This document shows, one piece after another, positions 15,418 to 24,518 of a DNA stretch of 42,895 nt. The notes beneath the pieces are model-generated. The model saw only the letters and a program-made list of their open reading frames with translations. It did not search any database and was not told the DNA's origin. The stretch is from Acidobacteriota bacterium (GTDB lineage Bacteria > Acidobacteriota > Vicinamibacteria > Vicinamibacterales > SCN-69-37), in the NCBI GenBank assembly GCA_004297655.1, contig SCUN01000054.1, positions 1 through 42,895 of the forward strand, read 5' to 3'. The translations under genes were made by a program, and so were the position numbers. Every line of letters starts with the position of its first letter. Positions within the stretch are counted from its first letter, which is position 1.

Positions 15418-16236
15418 TCACCGTTGAACAGCAACGACGTGCGCCTGGATTTTGCCATCCACGACGCCTCGGCCAAACCGCTGTGAAATCGCGGCAGCGC
15501 CGGCGTCCGTGACTTCGGCCAGCCGGGACGCGTCGCGCGCCTCGATTTCGTTTCGGAGCGGTGTGCCCTGGCAATAGGCCATGGCGACCGCTTCGGCAGA
15601 GCTGGCCCGGCTGCGTGCCGCCACTGTGACGATCTCCGGCGGAGCGGCGAACCCGCCGCCTCCGAGGTCTCGCTCGATGGCCGCCCGGTCGTGGTAGCCG
15701 TGCGGGGTGCGCGCCAGGAAGCGAGGCGGATCGTCCGGAAACAGCGGCTCGAGCGCGGCGGTGACGACATCCGCAAATTCGTTCTCTCTAATGTGATCCC
15801 ACACGTTGAAGATGAACACGCCGCCGGGTCTGAGAACTCGGCGCGCCTCCGCAAACGCCGCGGCCTTGTCCGGGAAGAACATGGCGCCGAATTGGCATAC
15901 GACTGCGTCAAACGTCTGGTCCTCAAACGGCAAGTGCATGGCGTCTGCCTGACGCCACTCCACCGGCCGCTGCAGTCCGAGCGTCATCGCGTGGTCGAGC
16001 ATCGCCTGATTCAAATCCGTCGCCACGATCGCGACGTGATCAGGCAACCTGGAGGCCAGAGCGCGTGTGAGGACGCCGGTGCCAGCGGCAATTTCGAGAA
16101 CCCGGGCCGGGGATCGCGATGCGAGCCGAGCCGCCAGATCCGTCGCGTAGGGCTCGAAGATCAGCGGAACGAGGTATGTCTCGTAAAGACTCGGAATCGA
16201 ACCGGCGAAGAGTTTGTCGGAATCAGGGCGGTTCAT
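15418..16236 (-). CDS. Class I SAM-dependent methyltransferase (Methyltransf_11/UbiE-like) with a C-terminal extra domain
   Basis: Motif I VLEIAAGTGVLT, motif post-I VATDLN, FDAVVCQFG, LRPGGVFIFNVW. It starts 9 nt after the stop of the FAD subunit gene. Confidence 0.85.
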   Translation of the reverse strand: MNRPDSDKLFAGSIPSLYETYLVPLIFEPYATDLAARLASRSPARVLEIAAGTGVLTRALASRLPDHVAIVATDLNQAMLDHAMTLGLQRPVEWRQADAMHLPFEDQTFDAVVCQFGAMFFPDKAAAFAEARRVLRPGGVFIFNVWDHIRENEFADVVTAALEPLFPDDPPRFLARTPHGYHDRAAIERDLGGGGFAAPPEIVTVAARSRASSAEAVAMAYCQGTPLRNEIEARDASRLAEVTDAGAAAISQRFGRGVVDGKIQAHVVAVQR

Positions 16237-16245
16237 GATGTGAGG

Positions 16246-17271
16246 TCAGAGTATCTGCCTCGCCAGACTCAACCGCTTCGCGCGCATGTCGTCGCCGCGG
16301 GCTTCGCGAAGGGCGCTCGTCACGAGCGACTTGACCATCTTCTTCCGCCAGACGAGCTCGAAGTCGGTGTTGTCCATCGGCTTCGCGATGTCGTACGCCG
16401 CGGCGGCCGCGGCGGCGATCGCCTCATCAGTCAACTTCTGGCCGATCAGGAGCGCTGACGCTTTCTCCGAAAGGAGCGGCCGCGAGGCGACGGCGCCGAG
16501 CGCGATGCGGGCGTGTTCGACGACGCCGCCGTCCAATTTGAGCGCGATGGCCGCGGCGCCCACGGGAAAGTCGAAACTGCCGCGGCGGCGCAGCTTCCAG
16601 TACGAGGTCGTCCACCCTCGCAGATTCGGCAACGACACAGACGTCAGCAGCTCGTCGGCCCGCTTCGTGAGATACGACATGCCGTCGTTGTTGTAGAAGT
16701 CATCCACGGCGACATCGCGCGAACCCGAGGCCGACACGAGCGTGACCTTCGCGCCGAGCGCGAGGAGCATCGGCGCGGTGTCGGTCGACGAGACGGCGAG
16801 ACACCGCTTGCTTGACGTCGCCACCCAGCACGTCGAGCCGTCCTTCTTCATGCAGTACCCGATCGCCTTGCGCCACTCCTCGGACTGGTCGTAATAGGTG
16901 CAGCGCGTATCGAGGCACAGATTGCCGCCGATCGTGGCCATGTTCCGAAGATGCGGCGTCGCGACCTGCGCGGCGGCCTGCCAGAGACCGCGCACATTCT
17001 TCTGCAGCAGCTCATCCCCCACCAGCGTCGAGAGCGTCGTCCCCGCGCCGATGATGCGTGAGCCGCCGGGGCCGGGCATCATGACGGCCAGCTCGCGAAT
17101 GCCGCGAAGGCCGACGAGCGTCTTCGGCTTCCACTGCCCGCGCTTCATGTTCGGCAGCACATCCGTGCCGCCCGCCACGATCATCATCGTCTCCGGCGAC
17201 TGGCCGAGAATGTCGACGGCTTCTTCGACGGACGCGGGCGCGTAGTACTTGAAAGATGGAAGGCGGAGCAT
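16246..17271 (-). CDS. FAD-binding (medium) subunit of a xanthine dehydrogenase-family molybdoenzyme, with a Cys-rich insertion (HcrB-like)
   Basis: 341 aa: AGGTDVLP, ATIGGNL (FAD_binding_5), CO_deh_flav_C-like C-terminus. The insertion after GGNL reads C-LDTR-C-x15-C-x7-C-x8-C (Cys119/124/140/148/157). Confidence 0.88.
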   Translation of the reverse strand: MLRLPSFKYYAPASVEEAVDILGQSPETMMIVAGGTDVLPNMKRGQWKPKTLVGLRGIRELAVMMPGPGGSRIIGAGTTLSTLVGDELLQKNVRGLWQAAAQVATPHLRNMATIGGNLCLDTRCTYYDQSEEWRKAIGYCMKKDGSTCWVATSSKRCLAVSSTDTAPMLLALGAKVTLVSASGSRDVAVDDFYNNDGMSYLTKRADELLTSVSLPNLRGWTTSYWKLRRRGSFDFPVGAAAIALKLDGGVVEHARIALGAVASRPLLSEKASALLIGQKLTDEAIAAAAAAAYDIAKPMDNTDFELVWRKKMVKSLVTSALREARGDDMRAKRLSLARQIL

Positions 17272-17272
17272 G

Positions 17273-19753
17273 CTACTTGGCCTCCCTCGCGATGGTGATG
17301 CCGGCCTTCACTTCCGTGCCGGCGTCGGCGACGCGCTTCTTCCTCTTCGGATCGTTCGCGGCGCGGCCGTCGCCGCCTTCCCACGGCGGCGTGACCATCA
17401 GCGTCTCGGGCCACGGAATCGACGGGAACGAATCCGGCCCGTAACGCGCGGGCTTGCCCGCGGCTTTCGCGGTCAGCGCTTTCAGGATCTTCTCGGGCGT
17501 CACGGGAATCTCGTCGACGCGCACGCCGACGGCGTCGTACACGGCGTTGGCGACCGCCGGCATGATCGGCAGCAGCGGCCCCTGCCCGACTTCCTTCGCA
17601 CCGAACGGTCCGGCCGGATCCGGGTCTTCGATGAGATCCGTGAAGATGTTCGGCATGTCGAGGCTCGTGAGGCTCTTGTACTCGAGGATCGACGGGAACT
17701 TGTGCACGAGCGCGTTCGAGAGTTTCGCGGGCAGCCGGCGGAACGCCGACTCCTCCATCAACGCCTCGCCCAACCCCATGTAGACGCCGCCCTCGACCTG
17801 GCCGCGCACGAGCGTCGGGTTGAGCGCGCGGCCGATGTCATGGCCGATCCACACATTCGGCACGGTGAGCCAGCCCGTTTCCGGATCGACTTCCACTTCG
17901 ACGATCGCCGCGCTATACGAATACGTCGGCGTCGGTCCGACGCCGCCGCCCTTGTACCGCGCCGGCGGCTTCGGCGGCGTGTAGGAACCGGTCGTGCCGA
18001 TCGTGCCAAACTTCGCTTCGGCAAAGACAACAGCCTCCTGAAAACTACAGCTCTTCTCCGCGCCCTCCGCGTGAGAGACACGCCCGTCTGCGAAGACGAG
18101 TTGCTCTTTGGGAACGCTGAGCTTCTCCGCAACCGCCTCCGCGAGAAGATCCCTCGCGCGCTCCGCCGCCTGGATCGCGGCGTTGCCCATCATCAGAGTC
18201 ACTCGGCTCGAATACGACCCGAGATCGACGGGCGTGAGATCGGTGTCACCGGTGACGACACGAATGTCGAAGGTCTCGAGACCGAGGATCTCGGCCACGC
18301 ACGCGGCGAGCACGTCATCCGATCCCTGGCCGATTTCCGTCGCTCCGCAAAACGCGGTGACGCCGCCGCTTCTGTCGAGCTTCAGCTGCACGCCCGAGTG
18401 CGGCAGATCGTTCCAGTTGATCGGCAAACCGGCGCCGGAAAGATACGACGAGCACGCGATGCCGACGCCGCGCCCGTACGGCAGCTTTCTGAACTTGTTC
18501 TTCCAGTCGGACCGCGCGACCACCTTGCGAATGCACTCCGCGAGGCCGATCGTGCCGATCTTCATGAAGTTCGCCGTCAGGCTGTTGGGCGGCGCCACGA
18601 TGTTCAGCCGCATCTCGGCCGGATCGAGCTTCAGCGTCTCGGCGATCTTGTCGAGCTGCACTTCCTGGCCGAACCGCGCCTGCGGCGTGCCGTGCCCCCG
18701 CTTCGGCCCGCACGCCGGCTTGTTCGTGAACACGCGGCAGCCGCGGAAACGGTACGTGGGAATCTCGTACGTCACCGTCTGCAGCGCGCCCGTGTAGAAC
18801 GTGCTGGCTACGCCGTACGATCCGTAGGCGCCGCCGTCGAGCAGTGTCTCGAGATCGAGACCGGTGATCTTGCCGTCCTTCGTGACACCCGCGCGGAACT
18901 TCATCTGCACGGGATGCCGGCCGCGATGGCAGTAGAACACCTCCTCGCGGCTGAGCGTGATCTTGACCGGACGATCCAGCATCATCGCCGCTTTGGCGAC
19001 GACGATCTCGTGGTTGAAGGGATCGCTCTTGCCGCCGAAGCCGCCACCGTTGGGCGTCGCGATCACGCGGATGTGCGCGGCAGTCATCGCGAGCGTCTTC
19101 GCGAGCGCGCGATGGAGATAGTGCGGCGTCTGCGTGCTCGAGTAGACGACCAGCTTGCCGTCCGGATCCTTCAGCGCGACGGTCGCGTGCTGCTCCAGCG
19201 GCAGGTGCGTGCTGCCCTCGAAGAAGAACGTATCTTCGAAGATGTGATCCGCCTTCGCGATCGCCGCGTCGACGTCGCCGAACTGCATCGCCACGGCTTT
19301 GTGGATGTTCCCGTCATCGCCATATTCGTGAATACGCGGTTCAGGGTTCAGGAGACTCTCTTCAGGGGTGCCGAAGGTTCTTAGTAGTTCGTACTCGACT
19401 TCGATGAGCTTCGCCGCTTGATCGGCAATCGACTCCGTTCGCGCGATGACGGCGGCAACGGGATCGCCGACGTGGCGGACTTTGTCCTGACAGAGCGCAT
19501 GTTCGTCATGGCTGACCGGCAGGACGCCGTAAGGAATTGGAAATGTCGATCCGGTGAGCGTAAGCAGGACGCCAGGAAAGGCGTCGGCCTTCGACGTATC
19601 GATGCGCACGATCCGCGCATGCGGGTGTGGCGACCGCAGCAGCCGGCAATAGACCATGCGCGGCAGCGCGATGTCGTCGGCGAACTTCGTCTGTCCGGTG
19701 ACTTTCGCGCGGCCGTCGACGCGGCGGCGCGGGCGGCCAATGACACCGGCCAT
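17273..19753 (-). CDS. Molybdopterin-binding (large) subunit of a xanthine dehydrogenase-family enzyme (HcrA-like position)
   Basis: 826 aa starting from ATG 19753: MAGVIGRPRRRVDGRAKVTGQTKFADD..., GGGFGGKSD, GHGTPQ, GAKEVGQGPL. The ATG overlaps the small-subunit stop (TAATG). The ORF-track extension to 20125 is an out-of-frame overlap artefact. There is a roughly 60-aa C-terminal tail beyond TPEKILKAL. Confidence 0.9.
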   Translation of the reverse strand: MAGVIGRPRRRVDGRAKVTGQTKFADDIALPRMVYCRLLRSPHPHARIVRIDTSKADAFPGVLLTLTGSTFPIPYGVLPVSHDEHALCQDKVRHVGDPVAAVIARTESIADQAAKLIEVEYELLRTFGTPEESLLNPEPRIHEYGDDGNIHKAVAMQFGDVDAAIAKADHIFEDTFFFEGSTHLPLEQHATVALKDPDGKLVVYSSTQTPHYLHRALAKTLAMTAAHIRVIATPNGGGFGGKSDPFNHEIVVAKAAMMLDRPVKITLSREEVFYCHRGRHPVQMKFRAGVTKDGKITGLDLETLLDGGAYGSYGVASTFYTGALQTVTYEIPTYRFRGCRVFTNKPACGPKRGHGTPQARFGQEVQLDKIAETLKLDPAEMRLNIVAPPNSLTANFMKIGTIGLAECIRKVVARSDWKNKFRKLPYGRGVGIACSSYLSGAGLPINWNDLPHSGVQLKLDRSGGVTAFCGATEIGQGSDDVLAACVAEILGLETFDIRVVTGDTDLTPVDLGSYSSRVTLMMGNAAIQAAERARDLLAEAVAEKLSVPKEQLVFADGRVSHAEGAEKSCSFQEAVVFAEAKFGTIGTTGSYTPPKPPARYKGGGVGPTPTYSYSAAIVEVEVDPETGWLTVPNVWIGHDIGRALNPTLVRGQVEGGVYMGLGEALMEESAFRRLPAKLSNALVHKFPSILEYKSLTSLDMPNIFTDLIEDPDPAGPFGAKEVGQGPLLPIMPAVANAVYDAVGVRVDEIPVTPEKILKALTAKAAGKPARYGPDSFPSIPWPETLMVTPPWEGGDGRAANDPKRKKRVADAGTEVKAGITIAREAK

Positions 19754-20265
19754 TATTTTGTTGCGCGGGGCTGAAGCCCCGCGGCTACTTTCGTCTGGAG
19801 TTTCTGAACCGCGCTCTCGACGGCTTCCACAATCTGCAGGTAACCCGTGCAGCGGCAGAGGTTGCCGGAAAGCGCTTCCTTGATCTGTTCCCGCGTGGGG
19901 TTCGGCTCGCGATCGAGCAGTGCTTTCGCTGTGACGATGATGCCGGGCGAGCAGTAGCCGCACTGCGATCCGCCGAGATCGGCCATCGCGTCCTGCAGCG
20001 GATGCAGTTCGTCGCCGGCCGCGATGCCTTCGATCGTGGTAACGCTGCGTCCGCCGCATTCGACGGCGAGCGCCAGGCACGACAGCACCGGCTGGCCGTC
20101 GACGAGCACGGCGCACGCGCCGCACTCGCCCAGTTCGCAGCCGTGCTTGGTGCCGGTGAGTTGAAGGTCTTCGCGGAGGACTTCGAGCAGGGTCTTCGCC
20201 GGATCGACGAGGGCGTCAATCGGCTCGCCGTTGACGGAAAGCGACAGCCGGAATGAATTCGACAT
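19753..20265 (-). CDS. [2Fe-2S]-binding (small) subunit of a xanthine dehydrogenase-family enzyme (HcrC/CoxS-like)
   Basis: 170 aa: CELGECGACAV...SC (plant-type cluster) and CGYCSPG...CRCTGY (second cluster). The last roughly 12 codons are encoded by a REP-like hairpin. Confidence 0.92.
   Translation of the reverse strand: MSNSFRLSLSVNGEPIDALVDPAKTLLEVLREDLQLTGTKHGCELGECGACAVLVDGQPVLSCLALAVECGGRSVTTIEGIAAGDELHPLQDAMADLGGSQCGYCSPGIIVTAKALLDREPNPTREQIKEALSGNLCRCTGYLQIVEAVESAVQKLQTKVAAGLQPRATK
19764..19788 (-). repeat. REP-like GC hairpin (type 1), embedded in the small-subunit 3' coding end
   Basis: The minus strand reads GTAGCCGCGGGGCTTCAGCCCCGCG, identical over 25 nt to 41990-42014 on the plus strand. 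8-bp stem, 4-nt loop (19764-19783). Confidence 0.8.
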
Positions 20266-20277
20266 GCCGCGCGGGGG

Positions 20278-21228
20278 CTAGAACTCGACGTTGGACGGGT
20301 TTTGCGGCGGCGTGCCGATGGCCTTCGCGGCATTGGCCGCCGCGGAAGCCGCCTGTTCGCCGGCCGAAATCGCCTGAAGCTTGGCGCGCTCGATCGTCTG
20401 CTGCGACACCTTGCGAAGGTCCTTGGTGATGCGCACCCACGACAGCGCCTTCACGATCCACTTGGTCGGATCGAAGTGCCACGCGCGCACGCCGTTGCGG
20501 TAATCACCCGGAAACTGGTGATGGAAGTTGTGGTACCCCTCGCCGAGCGTGATGAGCGCGACGATGCCGTTGTCGCGGGCGGAGATGGCCTTGTTGTACG
20601 GCTTCCGGCCGAACATGTGCGCGAGCGAGTTGATCGAGAACGTCGAGTGGTACTGCACGACGAGCCGGATGAATCCGGCCCACAGCACCGCGCCGACCGG
20701 ATCGCCCCACGCCATGCCGATCGCCGCCGGCAGCACCGCGACCATCAGGACCGTCAGCGGGATGTAGTACTTGTGCTGGAACGCGACGAGCGGATCCTTG
20801 TAGAGATCGGCCACGTTGTCGAGGTTGCGCAGCGGGTCCTTGAACAGCACCCAGCCCACATGCGACCACCAGAAGCCCTTCATCGAGTTGTAGGGGTCTT
20901 CGTCTTCGTCCGTGTCGGCGTGATGGCGGCGGTGGTCCGACGACCAGTTGATCACCGAGTTCTGCACGCCGGCCGCGCCGAAGAGCAGGTAGAACAGCCG
21001 CAGCGGCCACGCCGCGCGATAGGTCTTGTGCGAAAAGAGGCGATGATAGCCGCCGGTGATCGAGAGCCCCGCGCACAGGAACCAGATCACCGCCAGGAGG
21101 ACGTTTTCCCAGACGATGCCGGCCCAGAACGAGTAGATCAGCGCGGCGGCCGCGACGACATGGGCGGTCGCGATGAAAATCGTGTTCACCCAGTCGATCT
21201 GGCGGTCTTCGGACGTTGCATGGTGCAT
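20278..21228 (-). CDS. Acyl-CoA (stearoyl-CoA type) delta-9 desaturase
   Basis: 316 aa. His boxes HRLFSH, HRRHH, HNFHHQFP. The WSHVGW and GEGYHN motifs are typical of the membrane delta-9 family. It lies 12 nt upstream of the small-subunit gene. Confidence 0.9.
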   Translation of the reverse strand: MHHATSEDRQIDWVNTIFIATAHVVAAAALIYSFWAGIVWENVLLAVIWFLCAGLSITGGYHRLFSHKTYRAAWPLRLFYLLFGAAGVQNSVINWSSDHRRHHADTDEDEDPYNSMKGFWWSHVGWVLFKDPLRNLDNVADLYKDPLVAFQHKYYIPLTVLMVAVLPAAIGMAWGDPVGAVLWAGFIRLVVQYHSTFSINSLAHMFGRKPYNKAISARDNGIVALITLGEGYHNFHHQFPGDYRNGVRAWHFDPTKWIVKALSWVRITKDLRKVSQQTIERAKLQAISAGEQAASAAANAAKAIGTPPQNPSNVEF

Positions 21229-23195: not shown

Positions 23196-24518
23196 GTGAG
23201 CATTCACGCCATCCGGGGGCGGCTGGTCTGGTTCACGGCCGACCCGTTCGTCGACGGCGCGCGATCGCTGCGCCACGAGGCCGACGGGATCGTCGCGATC
23301 GATGCCGGGCGCATTACCCGCGTCGGCCCGGCGGCGGAGATTTTCGCCCACCTCCCGGAGAATTGCCCAGTCACCCACTACCCCGGTTGCCTGATCTCGC
23401 CGGGATTCATCGACACGCACGTGCACTACGCGCAGACCGGCATCGTCGGCGCCCATGGCGCGCAACTGCTCGACTGGCTGACCGAGTACGCGTATCCCGC
23501 CGAGGCGGAGATGGCGGACCGGCCGAAGGCCGACGCGATGGCGCGCGCGTTCTGCGACGAGCTGATTCGCAACGGCACGACGACCGCGCTGGTGTTTTGC
23601 ACGGTCTTCCCCGAGTCGGTGGACGCGCTCTTCGAGGAAGCCGCACGGCGGAATCTGCGCCTCATCGGCGGCAAGGTGTTGATGGATCGAAATGCGCCGG
23701 CCGCGCTTCTCGACACGGCGCGGTCGTCGTACGACCAGTCGAAGGCGCTGATTAAGAAATGGCACGGCCGCGGCCGCGCGAGTTATGCGATCACGCCGCG
23801 GTTTGCGCCGACATCAACACCCGAGCAACTCGAACTGGCGGGCGCGCTGTGGGCCGAGCATCCCGATGTGTACGTGCACAGCCATTTGTCTGAAAATGCC
23901 GCCGAGTGCGCCTGGGTGCGCGAGCTATTCCCGGATAGCGACCGCTATATAGATGTGTACGAATCATTCGGGCTGACGGGGCGGCGCGCGGTGTACGCGC
24001 ACGGTGTTCACCTGGCCGACGAGGACTTCGCGCTCTGCCATCACACCGGCACGGCGCTCGCGCACTGCCCCACCTCGAATCTCTTCCTCGGCAGCGGCCT
24101 CTTCAATCTCGGCGCGGCGACGCGCGCGGACCGGCGCGTGCATGTGGGGCTGGGGACGGACATCGGCGCCGGCACCAGCTTTTCGATCCTGGCCACGCTC
24201 AACGAAGCCTACAAAGTGGCGCAGATGACGGGGAGCGCGCTCGACGGCGTCCACGGCTGGTACCTGGCGACGCGAGGCGCCGCGGAGGCGCTCGATCTGG
24301 CCGGCACAATCGGTTCGCTCGAACCGGGCTGCGAGGCCGACATGGTCGTAGTCGATCCTCAGGCGACGCCGTTGCTCAAGCTCCGCGCGGAGCGGTGCCA
24401 ATCAATCGAAGAGCTGTTGTTCGTACTGATGACGCTCGGCGACGATCGCGCGATCCGCGCGACGTATGTTGCCGGGGCTAAAGCCCCGGCCTACGTCACC
24501 ACTTCCAATCCGCAATAA
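23196..24518 (+). CDS. guaD: Guanine deaminase
   Basis: 440 aa: PGFIDTHVHYAQ, ITPRFAPTST, HSHLSEN..E, HCPTSN.FLGSG, LGTDIGAG is the amidohydrolase/guanine deaminase signature. GTG start 9 nt after the regulator's stop. The last roughly 13 codons read through a REP-like hairpin and overlap the convergent gene by 23 nt. Confidence 0.9.
   Translation: MSIHAIRGRLVWFTADPFVDGARSLRHEADGIVAIDAGRITRVGPAAEIFAHLPENCPVTHYPGCLISPGFIDTHVHYAQTGIVGAHGAQLLDWLTEYAYPAEAEMADRPKADAMARAFCDELIRNGTTTALVFCTVFPESVDALFEEAARRNLRLIGGKVLMDRNAPAALLDTARSSYDQSKALIKKWHGRGRASYAITPRFAPTSTPEQLELAGALWAEHPDVYVHSHLSENAAECAWVRELFPDSDRYIDVYESFGLTGRRAVYAHGVHLADEDFALCHHTGTALAHCPTSNLFLGSGLFNLGAATRADRRVHVGLGTDIGAGTSFSILATLNEAYKVAQMTGSALDGVHGWYLATRGAAEALDLAGTIGSLEPGCEADMVVVDPQATPLLKLRAERCQSIEELLFVLMTLGDDRAIRATYVAGAKAPAYVTTSNPQ
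24471..24499 (+). repeat. REP-like GC hairpin (type 2: GCCGGGGCTaaAGCCCCGGC + CTACGTCAC)
   Basis: 9-bp stem at 24471-24490 followed by CTACGTCAC, the same tail as at 42042-42050. Confidence 0.75.

Follow-up and report, generated by a model that had tools for sequence, protein, structure and literature searches.

The three-subunit molybdenum enzyme encoded in the window (the whole stretch of DNA analyzed, 42,895 nucleotides long) carries in its FAD subunit a cysteine-rich loop of the type that holds the [4Fe-4S] cluster in HcrB of Thauera aromatica 4-hydroxybenzoyl-CoA reductase (HCR), and it has a glutamine in its large subunit at the position of the catalytic glutamate of the xanthine oxidase family. 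We consider it probable that this glutamine-variant enzyme acts as a ferredoxin-linked reductase of the aryl-CoA type that feeds the benzoyl-CoA pathways, and we infer a substrate resembling 4-hydroxybenzoyl-CoA from its relatives and its genomic company.

The FAD subunit and its cysteine-rich loop

The AGGTD and TIGGN motifs for FAD are intact in the HcrB-like medium subunit (Table 1), and the only cysteines of its 341 residues, Cys119, Cys124, Cys140, Cys148, and Cys157, all lie within a stretch of 39. Translation of the open reading frame bears out the pattern C-x4-C-x15-C-x7-C-x8-C that the initial annotation had read from the DNA, with residues 119-157, CLDTRCTYYDQSEEWRKAIGYCMKKDGSTCWVATSSKRC, mapping exactly to positions 16801-16917. 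The same annotation had described this stretch as an insertion compared with ordinary subunits of the family, and rightly so, as 46 query residues stand for 8 in CutM of CO dehydrogenase, and the HMMER match to that protein is split into two segments (query 5-119 with CutM 4-117, and query 166-323 with CutM 126-281); the Pfam FAD_binding_5 match covers 211 residues of the subunit over 168 profile positions. Among 51 homologs with 64-88% identity, the loop region (residues 115-164) is the best-conserved part of the whole subunit, with 33 of its 50 positions invariant compared with about 26% elsewhere, and all five cysteines are kept in 120 of the 120 closest clusters. This conservation, and the crowding of five cysteines into 39 residues, argue that the stretch is not a chance feature. 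An AF2 model of the subunit built from the 51-sequence alignment has a pTM of 0.82 and finds 1rm6_B as its top Foldseek match, though residues 106-160 are modeled with a pLDDT of only about 50-64.

The closest solved relative by sequence is also Thauera HcrB (PDB 1RM6_B, E 4e-56, 39% identity), which has an insertion of about 40 residues in its FAD subunit with cysteines at equivalent positions. In the loop, the two proteins align with zero gaps and with 28 of 50 residues identical, and the query residues Cys119/124/140/148/157 pair with Cys117/122/138/146/155 of HcrB (HcrB cysteines are numbered by counting along the 1RM6_B alignment, where query residue n corresponds to HcrB n-2). An alignment to HcrB had been named at the outset as a check on the loop, and in it all five cysteines superpose on HcrB cysteines; since it is gapless, it also confirms the spacing of 16/8/9 residues that the initial annotation had given for HcrB, as the last four cysteines fall at 122/138/146/155 in HcrB and at 124/140/148/157 in the query.

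The five cysteines are not equally conserved in more distant relatives. When one representative was taken from each of 150 clusters formed at 50% identity, about 145 kept Cys124, Cys140, Cys148, and Cys157, the exceptions being a few fragments, and Cys119 was replaced by L, M, A, S, or F in about 19 of the 150; in 46 Acidobacteriota sequences the last four are likewise near-invariant and Cys119 variable. Cys119 is therefore an unlikely ligand. In HcrB itself, we assign the four cluster ligands by conservation. Crystallography has shown a [4Fe-4S] cluster bound to the HcrB loop (PMC11760930). The gapless match to HcrB and the near-invariance of the last four cysteines make it very likely that the query subunit would also bind a [4Fe-4S] cluster, on Cys124, Cys140, Cys148, and Cys157, as had been proposed when the loop was first noticed.

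Two further solved structures match the query FAD subunit and have cysteine-rich inserts at the same site, PaoB of Escherichia coli PaoABC (5G5G_B) and the corresponding subunit of the Methylobacillus sp. KY4400 aldehyde oxidase (5Y6Q_B), and the insert in both is a [4Fe-4S] loop as well. They have equivalents of Cys124, Cys140, and Cys157 and no Cys119, but their cysteine spacing differs from that of the query, with no cysteine at the Cys148 equivalent and the fourth one placed in an additional insert that the query lacks, which identifies the query loop as HcrB-type and not PaoB-type. Because these aldehyde oxidases carry such a loop, a [4Fe-4S] cluster by itself is no proof of low-potential or reductive chemistry, and the initial annotation went too far in reading ferredoxin-type electron exchange directly from the cluster. 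HCR itself accepts electrons from reduced ferredoxin (PMC12771579).

Table 1. Positions in the window of the operon, of the residues discussed, and of flanking genes
Feature	Positions	Strand	Basis or remark
Medium (FAD) subunit, HcrB-like, 341 residues	16246..17271	minus	1RM6_B match, TIGR03195, PF00941/PF03450, Foldseek
Cysteine-rich loop, residues 119-157 of the FAD subunit	16801..16917	minus	gapless alignment to 1RM6_B, conservation
Cys119 codon, first loop cysteine	16915-16917	minus	alignment, conservation
Cys124, proposed [4Fe-4S] ligand	16900-16902	minus	alignment, conservation
Cys140, proposed [4Fe-4S] ligand	16852-16854	minus	alignment, conservation
Cys148, proposed [4Fe-4S] ligand	16828-16830	minus	alignment, conservation
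Cys157, proposed [4Fe-4S] ligand	16801-16803	minus	alignment, conservation
Large molybdopterin (MCD) subunit, HcrA-like, 826 residues	17273..19753	minus	1RM6_A match, TIGR03194
Large-subunit C-terminal tail, about 60 residues	17276-17455	minus	clade tail about 50-75 residues; none in Thauera HcrA
Gln724 of the large subunit, at the family's catalytic Glu position	17582-17584	minus	alignments; query motif GAKEVGQG
Glu663 of the large subunit, Gln in HcrA-type proteins	17765-17767	minus	alignments
Small subunit, 170 residues, two [2Fe-2S] motifs	19753..20265	minus	CELGECGAC...C and QCGYC...CRC
Methyltransferase flanking the operon	15418-16236		recurs in 0/80 relatives
Delta-9 desaturase, upstream of the operon	20278-21228		recurs in 3/80 relatives
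Amidohydrolase gene near the operon	23196-24518		synteny with the operon kept in two near relatives

The operon and the other subunits

The three genes follow the order small-large-medium, as in hcrCAB, and form one tight, translationally coupled operon, in which the small-subunit gene overlaps the large-subunit gene by 1 nt (stop codon with ATG) and the large- and medium-subunit genes are separated by a 1-nt gap. The full domain set of the xanthine oxidase family is present (Fer2 and Fer2_2; Ald_Xan_dh_C, MoCoBD_1, and MoCoBD_2; FAD_binding_5 and CO_deh_flav_C), and the motifs for FAD, for two [2Fe-2S] clusters, and for the molybdenum cofactor are intact across the three subunits, as they are in the likewise three-subunit Thauera HcrCAB (1RM6/1SB3). 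The small subunit sequence has no twin-arginine leader or other export signal, so the enzyme appears to be cytoplasmic.

The large subunit is 42% identical to HcrA and, among solved structures, scores 617 bits with 1RM6_A compared with 258 for the next best and 210 for PaoC, and it conserves with HcrA the motifs GGGFGG, RGHG, EIGQGS, and GSYSSR. It differs from HcrA in having an 8-residue insert and the C-terminal tail. This tail is found throughout the clade of close relatives described below, with a median of 66 residues after the TPEKIL motif at 62 loci, and with FP.I.WP in about half of them.

A glutamine-variant sister clade of 4-hydroxybenzoyl-CoA reductase

When compared with the NCBIfam equivalog models for HCR (TIGR03193, TIGR03194, and TIGR03195), each of the three subunits falls below its curated cut-off, the small subunit at 179.3 versus 257.8 bits, the large subunit at 800.5 versus 994.55 bits on TIGR03194, and the medium subunit at 292.7 versus 404.55 bits on TIGR03195. 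Residue Gln724 of the large subunit takes the place of Glu726 in HcrA, and it aligns as well with E743 of quinoline oxidoreductase (QOR), E692 of PaoC, and the Glu that nicotinate dehydrogenase (NDH) and CoxL have at this place, with residue numbers verified by counting along the alignments; the catalytic Glu is present in HcrA and in every other solved family member compared. The Gln is not a peculiarity of one sequence, as it occupies the position in all 72 close-relative loci that have the motif. When 40 large subunits of the phylum were aligned with Thauera HcrA, 27 proved to be of the Gln type, whereas the 13 others, which are Thauera-like, all have Glu, and in the resulting tree the 27 form one clade with support of 1.0, apart from Thauera HcrA. 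The FAD-subunit tree splits in the same manner (support 0.89), with the query clade apart from Thauera HcrB, and the latter groups with a Holophagaceae protein that adjoins bcrCBAD and that passes the TIGR03195 cut-off with 481.7 bits. The clade-diagnostic features of the large subunit comprise Gln724 and nine more columns, among them a reciprocal swap in which Glu663 and Gln724 stand for Gln and Glu of HcrA-type proteins, and the sequence CGPKRGHG instead of CGAMRGHG. Given the sub-cut-off scores, the separate clade, and the exchange of the catalytic Glu for Gln, the enzyme cannot be counted as an HCR orthologue, a point that the initial annotation had not recognized; it belongs to a large and uncharacterized Gln-variant sister clade.

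One enzyme in the sample combines features of both groups. In genome G198 (L012:5698-6760 region), an HcrCAB-like enzyme adjacent to bcr genes has CGPKRGHG together with GAKEAGEG, in which the Glu is kept; it scores 270 bits on TIGR03195, below the cut-off, and may represent an intermediate that links the Gln and Glu clades.

Benzoyl-CoA pathways in the source genome

The source genome is a Vicinamibacterales metagenome-assembled genome (MAG) of 2.79 Mb that is 82% complete, and it has only one HcrB-like gene. Named relatives likewise point to an uncultured bacterium of the Vicinamibacterales, with 82% identity for the best match. On a separate contig, C160 (L009:2-5489), a dienoyl-CoA-hydratase-like gene (dch) is followed by bcrC, bcrB, bcrA, and bcrD, an SDR gene, and an Rrf2 regulator. 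This cluster encodes a Thauera-type class I benzoyl-CoA reductase, with BcrC, BcrB, and BcrD over their cut-offs and BcrA at 566 versus 578. Contamination was considered as the source of C160 and rejected, given a GC content and tetranucleotide profile typical of the MAG. Another contig, C71 (L143:394-5839), likewise distinct from that of the operon, carries boxC and boxB, both over cut-off, and an aldehyde dehydrogenase gene. The MAG thus encodes both the oxic (Box) and the anoxic (Bcr) benzoyl-CoA routes. It also has four matches to 2-oxoacid:ferredoxin oxidoreductases, and from the bcr, box, and oxidoreductase genes together we infer that benzoyl-CoA is a metabolic hub in this organism and that low-potential ferredoxin chemistry is available to it. 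Neither a benzoate-CoA ligase nor Oah was found over cut-off in the MAG, which says little at 82% completeness.

Co-occurrence with Box and Bcr in Acidobacteriota

The association with benzoyl-CoA metabolism extends beyond the source genome. We sampled 401 Acidobacteriota genomes, 66 with the query clade and 335 others, and scored BoxB and BcrB by cut-off. BoxB is present in 38 of the clade genomes (58%) versus 34 of the others (10%), BcrB in 20 (30%) versus 20 (6%), and at least one of the two in 48 (73%) versus 51 (15%); both are missing from 18 of the 66 (27%). Fisher p-values for these contrasts are only indicative and overstate the association, because genomes that share ancestry do not count as independent. 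Of the 23 families with clade members, 20 show the association, and wherever a genome holds a relative at 57% identity or more (18 of 18), BoxB, BcrB, or both are present. Control genomes that have nothing closer than a generic FAD subunit show no enrichment of Box or Bcr (24% versus 25%). In contrast to Thauera HcrCAB, the query operon does not sit in a cluster with bcr genes, and its clade is found more often alongside aerobic Box.

Local gene neighborhood

The immediate surroundings of the operon were rejected as a clue to the substrate. No bcr, box, or CoA-ligase gene adjoins it, either in the window or in any of 80 close relatives, and in the 10-kb flanks of these relatives no bcr gene, CoA-ligase signature, or small ferredoxin gene was found; the only recurring neighbor is a TetR regulator, at 31 of the 80 loci. 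A module of desaturase, molybdenum enzyme, and methyltransferase was considered and likewise rejected, given how rarely the first and last recur (Table 1) and the absence of a sigma-54 regulator from all 80 loci, and the tight packing of these two genes with the operon looks incidental. The amidohydrolase synteny is probably inherited gene order and not a functional link. A distance of 13 kb separates the operon from dch-bcrCBAD-Rrf2 in G288, one of the near relatives. Two other kinds of gene appear at a minority of loci. A gene of the (tungsten-type) aldehyde:ferredoxin oxidoreductase family lies just upstream of the TetR gene and the operon in 5 of the 80 relatives (for example L091:4537-6303 and L107:4542-6314), and NuoF-like and formate-dehydrogenase-alpha-like genes occur within 10 kb of the operon at 9-11 of the 80 loci.

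Proposed reaction and alternatives

Our best guess is that the enzyme acts reductively on an aromatic thioester, with electrons supplied by ferredoxin. In such a mechanism, Cys124, Cys140, Cys148, and Cys157 would ligate a cubane next to the flavin, which would extend the electron wire to [4Fe-4S], FAD, two [2Fe-2S] clusters, and Mo-pterin. By analogy with Thauera HCR, a low-potential ferredoxin would dock at this cluster and deliver its electrons there, and these would flow toward the molybdenum to support a reductive reaction. The active site fits this direction. Hydroxylases of the family need a Glu as general base, which has been established for E1261 of XOR (bXO) and E730 of RcXDH, and its absence in the query argues against an ordinary oxidative hydroxylase and would favor a reductive or otherwise non-hydroxylating reaction. 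Since true HCRs keep the Glu, Gln724 may also be the sign of a wholly different reaction. In its likeliest role, the enzyme would reductively cleave a substituent off the ring of a thioester similar to 4-hydroxybenzoyl-CoA, and the product benzoyl-CoA would enter the aerobic BoxABC and the anaerobic BcrCBAD pathways. A comparator for reductive chemistry is the urolithin C dehydroxylase of Enterocloster (Ucd/Ucdh), a xanthine oxidase-family enzyme that dehydroxylates phenols and whose closest characterized relative is HCR (PMC11760930, PMC12771579), but which differs from the query in having no [4Fe-4S] loop, in using NADH, and in keeping the catalytic Glu (E741).

A more far-reaching version of this reading, which we put forward only tentatively, is that the Gln clade as a whole is a distinct aryl-CoA dehydroxylase or reductase, driven by ferredoxin and perhaps compatible with oxygen, one that in soil Acidobacteriota would mainly funnel substituted benzoyl-CoAs to aerobic Box, and not only to the anaerobic benzoyl-CoA reductase, and in which the active-site carboxylate would have been relocated. 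The relocation is suggested by the reciprocal swap of Glu663 and Gln724 for Gln and Glu in HcrA.

It is rather unlikely that the enzyme is a plain HCR orthologue that has diverged in another phylum and shares the substrate and mechanism of Thauera HcrCAB. The hcrCAB gene order with its coupled start and stop codons agrees with orthology, as does the finding of HcrA and HcrB as best PDB matches, yet all three subunits score under the curated cut-offs, a discrepancy that is softened by the bcr-adjacent G198 enzyme being under the TIGR03195 cut-off as well. Relatives are named HcrB by JGI, whereas in the trees the clade stands apart both from Thauera HcrA and HcrB and from the bcr-adjacent Holophagaceae HcrB, and Gln replaces the catalytic Glu along with changes in nine further diagnostic columns. 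While bcrCBAD occurs in the source genome, and lies near the operon in G288, the clade as a whole is tied more to Box than to Bcr.

An oxidative enzyme of the PaoABC or Methylobacillus aldehyde-oxidase type, in which the [4Fe-4S] cluster would be an exit to an acceptor and not an entry, is improbable. The shared insertion site in 5Y6Q_B and 5G5G_B would suit this alternative, as would the absence of a CoA-ligase gene nearby and the 27% of clade genomes that have neither Box nor Bcr. Against it, the loop spacing is that of HcrB, the large subunit is far closer to HcrA than to those of PaoABC and 5Y6Q (about 210 bits), the Glu that both oxidative enzymes keep is missing, and the small subunit has no twin-arginine leader, whereas PaoABC is periplasmic. 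That the cysteines bind zinc or form structural disulfides, with no Fe-S cluster, would accord with the poorly modeled loop but is hardly credible for a protein that appears cytoplasmic and whose loop is more strongly conserved than any other part of the subunit and is identical in spacing and flanking residues to a crystallographic [4Fe-4S] loop (PMC11760930).

Significance and distribution of the clade

The loop itself is an ordinary, textbook HcrB loop, and the interest lies in the enzyme that carries it. Automatic annotation, in the form of JGI names, labels the clade 4-hydroxybenzoyl-CoA reductase despite the missing catalytic Glu, and the clade tracks aerobic Box at least as well as anaerobic Bcr. 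[quoted passage not shown] The clade is present in about one-sixth of the sampled Acidobacteriota genomes, and members are also found in MAGs labeled Acidimicrobiia, Planctomycetota, and Proteobacteria. Its function is open to experiment in a genome-sequenced strain, Acidobacteria bacterium Mor1, in which BoxB but no Bcr was found and which holds a clade member 58% identical to the query.
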